4,102 nucleotides of DNA from the IMG/VR virus record IMGVR_UViG_2698536387_000013; one strand, 5' to 3'. Position 1 is the first letter of the stretch. Each line of letters begins with the position of its first letter. Of this stretch, positions 1 to 4,102 are shown in pieces. Position numbers: made by a program. The DNA is from a virus. Taxonomy: Duplodnaviria; Heunggongvirae; Uroviricota; Caudoviricetes.

Positions 1-3000
1 ATCAAAAGCCGGTGAGCGTTATCGCCGGGCTGTGGCGCTTATTGTTCGCCAGCAGCGGCTGAAATTAAGCCTGTCCGGACGGCTGGCAATAAAAATTATT
101 GCAGAACCACCGGATAAGCGCCGCCGTGACCTGGACAACATTCTGAAAGCACCGCTGGATGCGCTGACGCATGCGGAAGTGCTCATTGATGACGAGCAGT
201 TTGATGAAATCAATATTGTGCGCGGTCAGCCTGTGCCAGGTGGACGGCTGGGCGTGAAGATTTACGAAATCAGAGGTGGTAACGATGGCGCGTGATATCC
301 AGATGGTTCTTGAGCGATGGGGGGCATGGGCAGCAAATAATCATGAAGATGTAACATGGCCCTCGATAGCTGCTGGTTTTAAAGGATTAATCCCGACTAA
401 AGTGAAATCACGTCCTAAGTGTTCTGATGATGACGCCATGATAATTTGTGGTTGTATGGCACGATTAAACAAGAATAATCAGTATTTGCACGATTTGTTG
501 GTGGATTATTACGTAGGTGGAATGACATTTATGGCTCTTGCACGTAAGCATAGATGTTCTGATGGGCTTATTGGTAAAAGGCTTTATAAAGCGGAAGGTA
601 TTATTGAAGGAATGCTTATGGCTCTGAATGTCCGGTTAGATATGGATATGCGGTAGGGATATATAGTGATGAGGGTTATGTTTTCTGTGTTTATAATTAA
701 CATGTTTATTTTTTGATGGTCATGTATTGTGGAAGGTAGATAAAATGTTGCCTGGTGAATTGAAAATATTGATAATCAATCTTCATCATTAAATAAAAGG
801 AGTGCTTATGTGGATTGTGTTAGTACTGTCACTGTCAACTCTCAGTTGGCATAAGGTAGTGGCTTTTTCATTGTTGACGGTGTCTGTTGTCCTGGCTGTG
901 CTTAATGATATTATTGATTGGTCGGTGTTATTTTTTGTTGCTACAATCGTTTTTTTTATTATTTTGAAGTTCAACTGGAAATATAACGCCTGGGCTAAAT
1001 CTATATATGAAGTTGGCATAGTTTTATCAGCCATAGCATTATTTTTCCATCTATGGCCAGGGTTTCACAATCCTGTAGTGCTAAATTCTGTTACTGTTGG
1101 CCCTCAAAGTACTCCCTATACAATGTATTTTAATTTTGATAAAGCGCTGGTGCCATTTTTGTTAGTCCTGTGTACATCTTCTTTGTTTAAAAAAGAAGTA
1201 AAATCAGAAGTGTCTTTGTGGAAGTGGGGGGCTCTGTCGCTCTCTGTTCCTCTTATCCTGTTTTTGGCTGTTTTTTTTGGTGGATTAAAGCCAGAGATTC
1301 ATTTTCCTGAGTGGTTGCCAGAGTTTATATTGGCTAATTTGTTTTTTGTGTCTCTGGCAGAGGAATCATTATTTAGAGGGTATATTCAATCACGGCTATC
1401 AGAAGTAACGTCTCCATTGGTTGCATTAATTGTGGCGGCTTTGTTGTTTGGTTTTTATCACTATTCAGGTGGTGCTTTACTTGTATTATTTGCCACGTTA
1501 TCTGGTGTTGTGTATGGATTGTCATGGATGTGGAGTGGGCGTTTGTGGGTTGCCACCCTTTTCCATTTTGGTTTGAATCTGTGTCACTTGTTATTCTTTA
1601 CCTATCCATTTTTAAAACATAATTGATTTTTTCTATGGTTTTAAATTTATAAGACTGAAAAATAGCAGGACGTGACATTTGCATGAAAAATATGCACGGC
1701 AAAGCATTTACGTACGTAAAAAATCAGGTATGCTGTTAAGAGTGGTTATTTCGCCGCATAGCTTGACCCCGCCTCTGAGCGGGTTTTTTGTGCCCGCAAA
1801 GTAGCGCAGTGCGTTAAATGTGCTGGTAGTTATTAATACAGGTCTTTCAGCTTGCTGGCTTTTTCGACAAGAGTTATTGGTGTGTCACGTTAACCGGAAA
1901 GGGTAAAAAGACATGCTGAAACAGCAGGATATGACAGAAACCGCCAGAGTTGTGTTTGATGAATTAAGCGTCACCGAACCGGCGACGGTCGGGGAGATTG
2001 CGCAGAATACGTACCTTTCACGCGAGCGCTGCCAGTTAATACTGACCCAGCTGGTTATGCGGGTCTGGCAGACTATCAGTTCGGTTGTTACAGACGCCTT
2101 CAGTCCTGAAGGCTTTTTTATTTGTGGTAAATGGGCGGCTGGTGGGTGTTAGCGGCACCTGTCAGTCCTTTGCTTATGTGTTGATGATAATTTACCTTTT
2201 GGGGCTATAATTGAACTAACCAATTGCTAATGAAAGTAAAATTATAATGGTTGTTGTCTGTTCAGTTATCATGGTTTGCTCCCCAATTAATATTTTTCTT
2301 GAAAAGGATACGTTGTCACTTAAGCCCGGCTCAGTCGTTCTGGCCACCAAATGCATCAGGGCGCTTTTCCTTATGCATTATGGCAAAGTTAAAATTTTCG
2401 ATATAAACCATTCCATAGTAAGTCAATATCTGGAAATTCAGCATAAGCTGACAAGAACTCATCTGACTGACGTTCCGCTTTATCTGTCACTGGAACCCAA
2501 CAACCCTGCGTTGGCTGAGGCTTTAATTACCAGCCAGAGATTTTCCGGAGATACCACGGATATGTTTCTTATGATGGCATGCCTGTCGCTGTTTGAATCA
2601 GATGAACGGATATTATTATTTTTAAGTGGATGTTTATCCAGTATAAGTGCCAAAGTCAGGGCGATAATTCAGACAGATATATCAGCAAGCTGGACGCTTG
2701 GTGCGATTGCGTTACGCCTGCATATGAGTGAGAGTTTGTTAAAGATAAAACTGAAAAATGAAGGGCACATGTTCAGTCGCTTGTTGCTGGAAGAGCGGAT
2801 GCGTGTTGCTGTCAATATGTTATGTTCCCGGCATGGATATGGACAGGCTGTAGCAGAAAAATGCGGTTATTCAAGCTGGTCCTACTTTATTTCTGTATTT
2901 CACCGCTATTATGGCTTCCCGCCAGACAGATATGTATCCAGGCAAGGGCTTGATTATTGATTTTCATCTGATTATTATTTTTTGACCCGGCCCTTTAGCT

Positions 3001-4102
3001 CAGTGGTGAGAGCGAGCGACTCATAATCGCCAGGTCGCTGGTTCAAATCCAGCAAGGGCCACCATCACATACCGCCATTAGCTCATCAGGAAAGAGCGCC
3101 AGCTTTCGAAGCTGGTTGCGCGGAGTTCGGGTCCCCGAAGGCGGTCCATTATCTGTATCCTGCGTTGTTAGCTCAGCCGGACAGAGCAATTGCCTTCTAA
3201 GCAATCGGTCACTGGTTCGAATCCAGTACAACGCGCCACACTTATTTTCCCTGGCTCGCTTTTGCGGGCCTTTTTTTTAAATGTCTCACAATTCAGGCGG
3301 TTGACTGTTGTCTGGTTTGCGGGGAGTTTGTTAAAAGAAACTGGCATGGTGAATCCCCCTGTGCGGAGGGGCAATCAGCGAGTAGGTATATGGGATAATC
3401 GCGGATTCAGGTAATTCACCGGGAGGCACCCGGCACCATGCAATGGCACATAGCGCCACTCTCCAGCCCCTCTCCGGAGGGGCTTTCTTATGGACAAAAA
3501 AAGCCCGCGCAGGGAGCGCGGGCGGCAAGGAATAAACAACAAAACGTGAAGTAATATTTCAGCTGGCGAATAATATCCGACAGTAATCACTCTGCGCAAT
3601 AGCGCGGCCTTTTTCGTATTGCGGGCTGTTGTCTCTCTTCTGCCATTGTCCTGTAACTTCCGGACTTCAGCCCGCTCCTCATTTTACTCACAATATTATC
3701 CCGGCCGGGAGGATTCATGGCATTTAAACACTATGATGTTGTCAGGGCGGCGTCGCCGTCAGACCTTGCGGAAAAGCTGACACACAAACTGAAAGAGGGC
3801 TGGCAGCCATACGGCGGACCGGTTGCCATTACGCCGTACACACTGATGCAGGCGGTGGCTATTGAAGGAGATCCACAGGTCGGCCCTTCATCTAAGCCGG
3901 ATTGGTACTACGTCATCGTACTTGCCGGGCAGTCCAATGCCATGGCTTACGGTGAAGGGCTTCCGCTGCCGGATTCATACGATGCTCCGGATCCGCGCAT
4001 TAAACAGCTGGCGCGCCGCAGTACAGTTACGCCGGGTGGGGCTGCCTGCAGATATAACGATATTATTCCGGCCGACCACTGCCTGCATGATGTGCAGGAT
4101 AT

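Follow-up and report, generated by a model that had tools for sequence, protein, structure and literature searches.

The tRNA genes of the virulent phages T4 and T5 match codons that are used more by the phage than by its host, and Bailly-Bechet et al. reportedly set out a general codon-compensation model for phage tRNAs in 2007. Among temperate phages, the Stx-converting phages (933W, VT2-Sakai and their relatives) carry tRNA genes on the late strand, downstream of Q and upstream of the stx, esterase and lysis genes. Plunkett et al. (1999) are said to have proposed that these tRNAs supply decoders for rare codons of stx, which is essentially the hypothesis that an earlier note on the present DNA put forward for another set of neighbouring genes. 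Both the tRNA trio and its rare-codon rationale have been known since the first Stx-phage genomes. Three tRNA genes are found in 933W, VT2-Sakai, Min27, Stx2-II and Stx2-86, and two in phiP27 (PMC4631060). The same genomic slot downstream of Q holds tRNA genes in SfI, Sf6, ST64T and p21, for which the supplementation of codons has been suggested and the codon-compensation idea cited (PMC3636060). The downstream tRNAs differ in other lambdoid arrays, where they are Lys-UUU, Thr-UGU and Gly-UCC, or Asn-GUU and Thr-UGU in SfI.

The window (the whole stretch of DNA that was analysed, 4,102 nt) shows a closely similar arrangement. According to the PGAP annotation of a 99.6% identical genome (L001), it derives from a defective lambdoid E. 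coli O157:H7 prophage, of which it covers the Q-to-lysis region, with the gene order rusA, Q, cargo, tRNAs and a NanS-p-like esterase; the Q gene itself places the region in the Q-to-lysis interval. In L001, the lysis genes lie further downstream of the esterase, in inverted orientation, and this inverted lysis cassette is accompanied by IS insertions and a truncated capsid gene. The features of the window are as follows.

285-656, plus strand: late antiterminator Q gene (Pfam PF06530, E=8e-52, and annotated flanks)
808-1626, plus strand: CPBP/Rce1-like membrane protease gene, cargo, GC 0.38 (Pfam PF02517)
1768-1789, plus strand: intrinsic terminator, given as context (terminator scan and alignment with the cargo-less prophage L007)
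2247-2960, plus strand: AraC-family regulator gene, cargo, GC 0.42 (Pfam HTH_18 and HTH_AraC)
2950-2978, plus strand: sigma-70-like promoter, TTGATT, 17-nt spacer, TATTAT (consensus scan and conservation)
2989-3064, plus strand: ileZ, tRNA-Ile2 type, anticodon CAU, CCA encoded (ARAGORN; Rfam 72.5 bits, E=4e-15; PGAP tRNA-Ile)
3072-3148, plus strand: argN, tRNA-Arg, anticodon UCG (ARAGORN; Rfam 42.9 bits, E=5.9e-7; PGAP tRNA-Arg)
3162-3238, plus strand: argO, tRNA-Arg, anticodon UCU, CCA encoded (ARAGORN; Rfam 70.1 bits, E=1.9e-14; PGAP tRNA-Arg)
3253-3278, plus strand: intrinsic terminator, GGCTCGC-TTTT-GCGGGCC followed by T8, closing the tRNA operon (terminator scan)
3315-3495, plus strand: STnc100 (PasD-related) prophage sRNA with its own terminator (Rfam RF02076, 123.6 bits, E=8e-28)

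In a Megablast search, the trio matched Stx1a/Stx2a-converting phages, phiP27 and Nil3 at 89-97% identity, the genes being annotated there as argN, tRNA-Arg and tRNA-Ile, and the anticodons, their order and the late strand are those of 933W, VT2-Sakai and their relatives. By contrast, the neighbours are not the same: a DNA methyltransferase gene and stx in the Stx phages, but the AraC regulator, a frameshifted TrmB-like ORF and the CPBP protease gene in the window. The window further differs from the Stx phages in the defects of its prophage and in its argN, which carries two stem mismatches and G58. We identify the feature as the ileZ-argN-argO operon, which belongs to the standard modules of lambdoid (Stx-type) E. 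coli prophages. The possibility that the tRNA genes mark the integration site of the prophage was rejected, as they lie inside it, about 18 kb from the integrase end.

The earlier note had read three tRNA genes at 2989-3238, with the anticodons CAU, UCU and probably UCG. ARAGORN calls exactly three genes in this interval, all on the plus strand and with these very anticodons, and PGAP annotates the same three in the 99.6% identical genome, as tRNA-Ile, tRNA-Arg and tRNA-Arg. All three exceed the gathering score of the Rfam tRNA model (29 bits), and the matches are not due to chance. The spacers measure 7 nt between ileZ and argN and 13 nt between argN and argO, and the CCA end is encoded in each gene. 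Minus-strand ORFs of 62-74 aa that span the tRNAs were rejected as artefacts.

ileZ is identical at 68/76 positions to ileX, one of the host tRNA-Ile2 genes (ileX/ileY) and a core tRNA labelled tRNA-Ile in 5424/5426 E. coli genomes. It has the anticodon loop of ileX, its anticodon-arm stems differ from those of ileX at pair 27:43 only, and its acceptor stem (GGCCCTT/AAGGGCC) retains C4-G69 and C5-G68. These two acceptor-stem pairs are the determinants of TilS, as reportedly described by Ikeuchi et al. in 2005. The ileX-like body and the two pairs justify the reading of ileZ as an AUA decoder, C34 being presumed to be modified to lysidine, and the CAU gene is to be annotated as tRNA-Ile2, not tRNA-Met. 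argO, whose anticodon UCU is predicted to read AGA and AGG, has perfect stems throughout, and the window carries the commonest of its 23 alleles (39/95 copies). It shares the anticodon loop of the host argU tRNA-Arg(UCU), but its anticodon stem is different and the two genes are identical at only 56/77 positions overall. ArgRS relies on two determinants, A20 of the D loop and C35 of the anticodon, and both are present in argN and argO (D loops ATCAGGAAA and AGCCGGACA, anticodons TCG and TCT), while U73, the discriminator of argN, differs from that of host Arg tRNAs. With its anticodon UCG, argN would read CGA and CGG; to our knowledge, the tRNA set native to E. coli lacks a tRNA-Arg with UCG, CGN codons being served by ICG and CCG. 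Compared with the host tRNAs, the phage copies are accessory and multi-copy.

Although argN is called as a tRNA by ARAGORN, Rfam and PGAP, it lacks both the full stem pairing and the T54-T55-C56-R57-A58 T loop of a canonical elongator tRNA. Its Rfam score lies about 28 bits under those of its neighbours, yet above the gathering score. Rfam flags two mismatches, A6.A67 and A52.C62, and position 32 is a U. In an alignment of 36 argN alleles, pair 6:67 is kept in 27 and pair 52:62 in 28 (alignment columns 6:68 and 53:63), and most alleles have the T loop TTCGAGT or TTCAAGT where the window has TTCGGGT, with G58. The window's allele may be weakened or inactive, and in annotation its UCG tRNA is best treated as possibly non-functional.

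We then considered how the operon is expressed. The predicted promoter, with its -10 hexamer at 2973-2978, overlaps the stop codon of the AraC gene and is separated by 10 nt from the mature 5' end of ileZ; transcription is predicted to start at about 2985. Across 42 distinct upstream sequences, drawn from 121 loci with unrelated upstream genes, its -35 TTG and -10 TATTAT are at least 90% conserved and stand at a fixed distance from the tRNA, and we infer that 2950-2978 acts as a promoter. The terminator that closes the operon after argO is present too in the Stx2e locus L004, and no strong terminator was detected by the terminator scan between AraC and the tRNAs. Given this own, constitutive-looking promoter, the lysogen probably expresses the trio, on which all host genes could then draw; the promoter, the small set of three genes and the temperate lifestyle distinguish it from the tRNA sets of T4 and T5. 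A late promoter PR' was also sought between Q and the tRNAs, and neither the consensus scan nor the alignment with L007 yielded a convincing consensus promoter before the terminator at 1768. This terminator aligns with the one that separates Q from the tRNA promoter in the cargo-less L007 and is possibly tR'.

Over some 40 nt at the promoter, homology with other trio loci climbs from 9% to 100%; it declines after argO, and the neighbours are mosaic on both sides. Such boundaries, here in a defective prophage, could also be those of a passive passenger without current function, a conserved block that would act as a homologous crossover point for the exchange of cassettes. The decay of argN in many lineages, with a middle gene that is uncallable in 32/120 arrays and with poly-G slippage and deletion variants, would suit such a block. 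It is much less easily reconciled with the stems of ileZ and argO, which are perfect in nearly all copies, with the prevalence of the window's argO allele, or with promoter hexamers conserved in unrelated contexts. The perfect stems and conserved hexamers point to purifying selection acting on both expression and function, and we regard the passenger explanation as quite improbable.

The earlier note had suggested that the tRNAs are kept to support translation of the adjacent cargo, and the codons that it listed are indeed present and in frame: GAT ATA AAC (2400-2408), ACA AGA ACT (2451-2459) and CAG AGA TTT (2535-2543) in the AraC gene, TTT AGA GGG (1372-1380) and TCT ATA TAT (1000-1008) in the CPBP gene. 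For the host background, we used 42 core genes (13,562 codons) from one chromosomal region (mukB-mgsA), whose values match published E. coli codon usage, and the tellurite and urease O-island genes served as comparator for horizontally acquired genes. The two cargo genes (509 codons) contain 21.6 ATA, 7.9 AGA and 5.9 AGG per 1000 codons, against 2.5, 1.2 and 0.7 in the host core, an enrichment of about eightfold for ATA and for AGA/AGG (Fisher, ATA: OR 8.8, p=4e-7; AGA+AGG: OR 7.6, p=1e-4; the two combined: OR 8.4, p=2e-10). By contrast, CGA (0) and CGG (4) are not above host background (OR 0.82, p=1), so that the predicted excess over the host holds for two of the three tRNAs' codons. The load is unevenly distributed between the two genes: AraC has 7 ATA, 6 AGA/AGG, 0 CGA and 3 CGG codons (55 ATA+AGA/AGG per 1000), and CPBP has 4 ATA, 1 AGA, 0 CGA and 1 CGG.

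The rare codons of AraC, the enrichment over the core genes and the lack of a strong terminator between AraC and the tRNAs are what would be expected if the trio were retained for the translation of AraC and CPBP, tRNAs and cargo forming a functional unit. Measured against other foreign genes, the same load is ordinary. Relative to the other early prophage genes, the cargo is equal in AGA/AGG (OR 1.03) and differs in ATA by an OR of 2.05 (p=0.046), and the five ATA/AGA/AGG codons of CPBP amount to 18 per 1000, below the average of 24 per 1000 in early prophage genes. AT-rich island genes without a nearby tRNA reach 46-99 ATA+AGA+AGG per 1000, compared with 35 in the cargo, and stx2eA in L004, in keeping with the rationale put forward for stx, reaches 82. 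In its use of the codons read by the trio, the cargo, which lacks CGA altogether, does not surpass other genes of the prophage or of islands, and the rare-codon load follows base composition.

Distribution separates the tRNAs from the cargo still further. The trio region occurs at 7597 places in 3061/5426 complete E. coli genomes, a single genome having as many as 13 of them, whereas the AraC gene occurs at 1324 places in 726 of these genomes. We also collected 78 viral contigs that have the same ileZ and at least 2.5 kb of upstream sequence. AraC lies upstream of the trio in 7 of them (9%), and CPBP plus AraC in 3 (4%); in the remaining contigs, a DNA methyltransferase gene or Q is found directly upstream. 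In loci L004-L007, the tRNA array sits in the same slot as in the window, and stx2e, TolA-like genes or nothing stand between it and the lysis genes. Finally, O157 genomes contain 7-8 copies of the trio, which makes any single copy redundant for its neighbours. The tRNAs therefore do not co-occur with the cargo that they were supposed to serve, and distribution largely refutes the functional unit. With the ordinary codon load, the absence of CGA and the damaged argN, the proposal that the tRNAs are kept for the adjacent cargo is not supported, and we hold it to be highly improbable. The closeness of tRNAs and cargo is not to be taken as a functional link.

The more general part of the proposal, that the tRNAs supply decoders for rare codons, fits the data for the prophage as a whole. 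When the 61 sense codons were ranked by their over-representation in 44 prophage genes relative to the 42 core genes, AGG, AGA, ATA and CGG took the first four places, and the trio reads every one of them; CGA ranked tenth. The chance that the top four of a random ranking all fall within the five trio-read codons is 5/521,855, a figure given purely to illustrate the match, as foreign DNA can be expected from the outset to be rich in codons that the host rarely uses. The late prophage genes are likewise enriched, with ORs of 5.1 for AGA/AGG and 2.2 for CGA/CGG. These data support codon supplementation for the prophage as a whole and not for this cargo, and the whole-prophage ranking illustrates the codon-compensation model cleanly, on a small scale.

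For the ileZ-argN-argO module, the following sequence of events can be proposed, with a probability of roughly three in four. In the lysogen, the operon's own promoter would drive its transcription, possibly with extra transcription from an upstream late promoter by Q-modified polymerase after induction, and the precursor would be cut into three tRNAs. Host TilS would add lysidine to ileZ, enabling it to read AUA, and argO would read AGA and AGG, the window's argN allele probably being weakened or inactive. The lysogen would thereby gain decoders for host-rare codons that are 3-7 times more frequent in prophage genes, which would help phage genes, and horizontally acquired genes at large, to be translated. 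AraC and CPBP would be two of many alternative cargo cassettes in one insertion-tolerant slot, and their benefit at most incidental. As a counterpoint, selection for late-gene translation cannot act on this copy, since the prophage is defective. Moreover, in a published comparison, codon adaptation did not differ between lambdoid phages that carry these tRNAs and relatives that lack them (t-test P=0.93, PMC4631060), indicating that the tRNAs are dispensable for this type of phage.

Alternatively, the phage tRNAs might replace host tRNAs that are cleaved by immune nucleases or colicins, being of value for their insensitivity and not for codon supply. Colicin D cuts tRNA-Arg, and argO combines the argU anticodon loop with a different anticodon stem. 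The T5 tRNAs Lys(UUU), Thr(UGU) and Asn(GUU) overcome PARIS (PMC11464382, PMC12409363); Lys(UUU) and Thr(UGU) are present in alternative arrays of the slot studied here, and SfI has Asn(GUU) and Thr(UGU), the Asn tRNA being unexplained by codon bias (PMC3636060). The anticodon arm of the middle slot also evolves fast. Nevertheless, the codon ranking already explains the anticodon set of the window, and ileZ, with the loop of ileX and stems that differ only at 27:43, would have little room for escape. By analogy with T5, such a counter-defence role is conceivable but unlikely.

The middle position of the array deserves separate mention. The window and L007 share one acceptor/D/T scaffold there, but the arm that it bears is Arg-UCG in the window and Lys-UUU in L007, the stems having changed in a compensatory way, and other lineages have a non-canonical version of 100-107 nt or deletions. 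Arrays with Lys-UUU, Thr-UGU and Gly-UCC start, in 17 loci, with an identical ileZ and the same promoter. The reported targets of AriB, the PARIS nuclease, are precisely the alternative tRNAs of this slot: Lys-UUU, Thr-UGU and, in SfI, Asn-GUU. This position might be a fast-evolving, exchangeable anticodon cassette, and an arms race with colicins or tRNA-cleaving immunity might have moulded the array, both Arg tRNAs included, codon supply playing the lesser part. We consider this unlikely, while noting that the variability of the middle slot and the overlap of the alternative arrays with known anticodon-nuclease targets are the sole lead that might repay further work.

The attempt to assign the AraC gene as PsrA, PsrB or PatE failed: cluster names say only helix-turn-helix/AraC family, and psrA and psrB, placed in OI-50 and OI-57 by reviews, could not be mapped onto this prophage next to yccA. 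"PsrA/PsrB-like" is used here as a label only, supported by the two AraC copies in O157 genomes, a 90-95% identity band and a PerC-family gene nearby. Among the Rfam matches, those below threshold (Plastid-ycf2, OmrA-B, suhB and others) were rejected as artefacts. The STnc100 sRNA lies outside the tRNA operon and is found too in loci L005 and L006.

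ARAGORN, run on the window, returned three tRNA genes on the + strand with anticodons CAT, TCG and TCT, exactly where the earlier note had placed them, and all three exceed the gathering score of the Rfam tRNA model (29). Gaps of 7 and 13 nt lie between them, and the CCA end is encoded in all three.

2989-3064, + strand: tRNA gene 1 (ileZ), ARAGORN anticodon CAT, Rfam 72.5 bits
3072-3148, + strand: tRNA gene 2 (argN), ARAGORN anticodon TCG, Rfam 42.9 bits
3162-3238, + strand: tRNA gene 3 (argO), ARAGORN anticodon TCT, Rfam 70.1 bits

The first gene is labeled Met by ARAGORN, to which CAU-Met and CAU-Ile are indistinguishable, and tRNA-Ile by PGAP in a 99.6% identical genome. 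ileZ matches ileX, the core E. coli tRNA-Ile2 gene (annotated tRNA-Ile, its sequence present in 5424 of 5426 complete genomes), at 68 of 76 positions, has the same anticodon loop and retains C4-G69 and C5-G68, both reportedly determinants for TilS, the lysidine synthetase. The anticodon loop of argO is identical to that of the host argU, yet the two genes share only 56 of 77 positions overall. As for argN, E. coli is not known to have a UCG-anticodon tRNA-Arg in its own set.

The trio is the ileZ-argN-argO cluster, already known from Stx phages and reportedly described with their first genomes. Indeed, when compared with a phage collection, the tRNA region is 89-97% identical to Stx1- and Stx2-converting phages, phiP27 and Nil3, and the matching records label its genes argN, tRNA-Arg and tRNA-Ile. 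Three tRNA genes are found in 933W, VT2-Sakai, Min27, Stx2-II and Stx2-86, and two in phiP27 (PMC4631060); lambdoid phages commonly have tRNA genes immediately after Q (PMC3636060). A segment of E. coli O157:H7-type chromosomes matches the window at 99.6% identity. In an annotated relative, L001, this segment lies within a lambdoid prophage adjoining yccA, with the gene order rusA, Q, CPBP/Rce1-like, TrmB-like ORF, AraC-family, three tRNAs, sialate esterase.

285-656: antiterminator gene Q
808-1626: CPBP/Rce1-like membrane protease gene
1913-2152, + strand: TrmB-like ORF, frameshifted (PGAP annotation in the 99.6% identical genome)
2247-2960: AraC-family regulator gene
from 3717/3728: DUF1737/SASA sialate esterase gene

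The region past the esterase gene holds a lysis cassette in inverted orientation, IS elements and head genes that are truncated, and this prophage copy is therefore defective. At 25754-33651 of L001, the inversion turns the holin, lysozyme and Rz-like lysis genes against the direction of the late operon, elements of the IS3 and IS66 families have inserted, and truncations affect the genes for the terminase small subunit and the major capsid protein. Among 185,579 species-representative genomes, only 3 contain an exact copy of a 47-nt argO core, namely E. coli, an Escherichia sp. and one MAG. Searched this stringently, the trio module is essentially confined to Escherichia.

Three elements bear on the transcription of the cluster.

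1768-1789, + strand: intrinsic terminator, possible tR'
2950-2978: promoter-like pair TTGATT-N17-TATTAT, ending 10 nt before the first tRNA
3253-3270 plus T8: intrinsic terminator after the third tRNA, rated good

The promoter-like pair overlaps the stop codon of the AraC gene. Using 120 viral contigs collected by the shared 3' part of ileZ, together with the window and E. coli loci, we compared the 121 loci whose upstream sequence was long enough; they carry 42 distinct upstream sequences. The TTG of the -35 and the TATTAT of the -10 are conserved in at least 90% of these 42, at a constant distance to the tRNA, and equally so behind a methyltransferase gene end, a post-Q terminator or the AraC gene. 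From this arrangement, we infer a self-contained tRNA operon, which would be expressed in the lysogen. The terminator at 1768-1789 aligns with one located after Q and before the tRNA promoter in L007, a prophage without the cargo genes, and may be the tR' of the late promoter transcript. Our search for the late promoter did not locate it; given this possible tR', it perhaps lies upstream of the trio, in which case induction would also bring Q-modified polymerase through the tRNA operon. If the terminator is tR', the CPBP gene would sit after Q and ahead of the late promoter, with the AraC gene and tRNAs downstream of tR'.

The earlier note had proposed that the tRNAs may support translation of the adjacent cargo, the CPBP and AraC genes, and of late genes; it quoted five codon contexts, all of which we found, in frame. 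As host background, we used 42 intact core genes of the mukB-yccA region of the same genome, whose values are close to published E. coli usage.

Codon use of host core and cargo genes, per 1000 codons
Host core genes (42; 13,562 codons): ATA 2.5, AGA 1.2, AGG 0.7, CGA 3.5, CGG 6.1
Two cargo genes (509 codons): ATA 21.6, AGA 7.9, AGG 5.9, CGA 0, CGG 7.9

ATA (OR 8.8, p=4e-7) and AGA+AGG (OR 7.6, p=1e-4) are clearly above host, so the anticipated excess stands for these codons; it does not for CGA+CGG (OR 0.82). However, compared with 25 early genes of the same prophage (24 ATA+AGA+AGG per 1000, versus 35 in the cargo), AGA/AGG use shows no difference (OR 1.03) and ATA is only marginally higher (OR 2.05, p=0.046), while the CPBP gene alone, at 18 per 1000, falls under the prophage average. 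Elsewhere in this genome, an unrelated island without tRNA genes in its vicinity has genes of 30-44% GC with 46-99 such codons per 1000. Rare-codon load tracks base composition. At the stx2e locus L004, stx2eA is likewise rich in rare codons (82 ATA+AGA+AGG per 1000), and the window is another instance of the classical stx observation.

Of 5426 complete E. coli genomes, 3061 carry the trio region, at 7597 places, with up to 13 per genome and 7-8 copies in O157 strains; 726 carry the AraC gene, at 1324 places. We also compared 78 viral contigs that share this ileZ and extend at least 2.5 kb upstream of it: AraC precedes the trio in 7 and CPBP plus AraC in 3, and in the remainder the adjoining upstream gene encodes a DNA methyltransferase or is Q. 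By coverage, the tRNAs of the window are shared by 95-100% of 57 trio-bearing viral loci, AraC by 9% and CPBP by 4%; the segment 1750-2200, around the TrmB-like ORF, is common to 54% and, unlike the AraC gene, is a conserved backbone piece. In individual loci, the array is followed by stx2e, TolA-like genes or directly by lysis genes. On these four counts of codon load and distribution, the cargo is not special: cargo and tRNAs share a common insertion-tolerant slot and form no unit. The model of a trio serving the adjacent AraC and CPBP genes thus fails, contradicted by both distribution and codon counts. What the earlier note observed is correct; its idea of support for translation was right in spirit and wrong in its focus on neighbouring genes.

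We ordered the 61 sense codons by their over-representation in 44 prophage genes (9428 codons) relative to the core sample. The top four, AGG (OR 6.8), AGA (5.7), ATA (3.2) and CGG (2.2), are all read by the trio, with the caveats that an excess of host-rare codons is to be expected in foreign DNA of any kind and that the core sample is small. CGA ranked tenth, and ranks 6-9 (GGG, GGA, ACA, AAG) are read by an alternative Lys-UUU/Thr-UGU/Gly-UCC array. Codon supplementation at the whole-prophage level fits these data well. As a further caveat, a published comparison saw no difference in codon adaptation between lambdoid phages that have these tRNAs and those that lack them (PMC4631060). A counter-defence role, in which phage tRNAs would substitute for host tRNAs that immune nucleases have destroyed, is generally plausible (PMC11464382, PMC12409363), and the slot's alternative tRNAs Lys-UUU, Thr-UGU and Asn-GUU (SfI) are reported targets of the PARIS nuclease AriB; the differences between ileZ and ileX, however, all lie outside the anticodon loop.

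Within the cluster, argN is the weak gene. The window copy carries A6.A67 and A52.C62 mismatches, U32 and the T loop TTCGGGT, with G58 in place of the near-universal A58. Our alignment of 36 middle-slot alleles of 77 nt, drawn from the collected loci and with three Lys-UUU alleles among them, is 96% paired as a cloverleaf (at most 53% in slid controls); pair 6:67 is kept in 27 of the 36 and 52:62 in 28, and the usual T loop is TTCGAGT or TTCAAGT. By this comparison, the window argN is one of a derived minority of alleles with structural damage. The prediction tools still accept it, so the refutation that the earlier note had foreseen, rejection by such tools, did not occur. Even so, it is doubtful that this copy functions, and the cargo offers it no CGA to read. 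The middle gene is uncallable in 32 of 120 arrays. Other lineages (L004, the stx2e locus, 3087-3167; L005 and L006, further trio-slot loci, ~3085-3175; many IMG/VR loci) carry a 100-107-nt middle element with a replaced anticodon arm (GACGACACGATAACAGGGTTGTT) and a poly-G run of variable length, annotated 'tRNA-OTHER' or not called by PGAP; the three examples checked (L004, L005, L006) fall below the Rfam tRNA threshold. Deletion forms of 80 nt also occur, and decay is common in this slot. In contrast, the window argO is the commonest of 23 alleles, with perfect stems, and the 5' portion of ileZ is almost invariant, most of ileZ being fixed by the search pattern. A passive-linker role of the trio would account for the sharp mosaic boundaries around it and for the decaying argN, but not for the conserved promoter, ileZ and argO.

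In L001, the closest genome match, position 22989 (2989 in the window) has A for G at ileZ tRNA position 1, which breaks G1-C72, and the Rfam score is 66.3 bits versus 72.5; predicted damaging changes reach even ileZ copies in some strains. The window argN (3072-3148) and its L007 counterpart (3081-3157) share one scaffold of acceptor, D and T arms, with an Arg-UCG or a Lys-UUU anticodon arm and compensatory changes at pairs 7:66, 27:43 and 30:40 (alignment columns 7:67, 28:44 and 31:41). This looks like anticodon-arm switching inside one tRNA lineage. The alternative array, Ile-CAU/Lys-UUU/Thr-UGU/Gly-UCC (L007 3004-3313 and 13 further IMG/VR loci), has the same promoter and an identical ileZ, with both Arg tRNAs replaced. 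The quick turnover of the middle slot is the sole lead worth noting.

Between the tRNA operon and the esterase gene lies a strong match to the STnc100 prophage sRNA family, with its own terminator (3465-3484, + strand).

3315-3495, + strand: STnc100 family match, 123.6 bits

It recurs at L005 3953-4143 and L006 3958-4148, and the window copy has 10 nt fewer at 3412 than its closest genome match. STnc100 is related to PasD, for which a pasD-esterase-holin-lysozyme arrangement is described (2026 preprint). Its strong terminator stands back to back with another strong one at 3523-3503 (- strand; 8 G-C pairs plus T7), ahead of the esterase gene; no obvious gene for the latter to end was seen within the window. 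L001 carries a PerC-family (Pch-like) regulator gene (26935-27249, - strand) on the downstream side of the AraC gene, about 4 kb away. The AraC-like PsrA and PsrB are prophage-borne and associated with Pch regulators (reviews). Because of this nearby gene, the two copies in O157 genomes and a 90-95% identity band, the AraC gene is probably psrA, psrB or a close paralogue.
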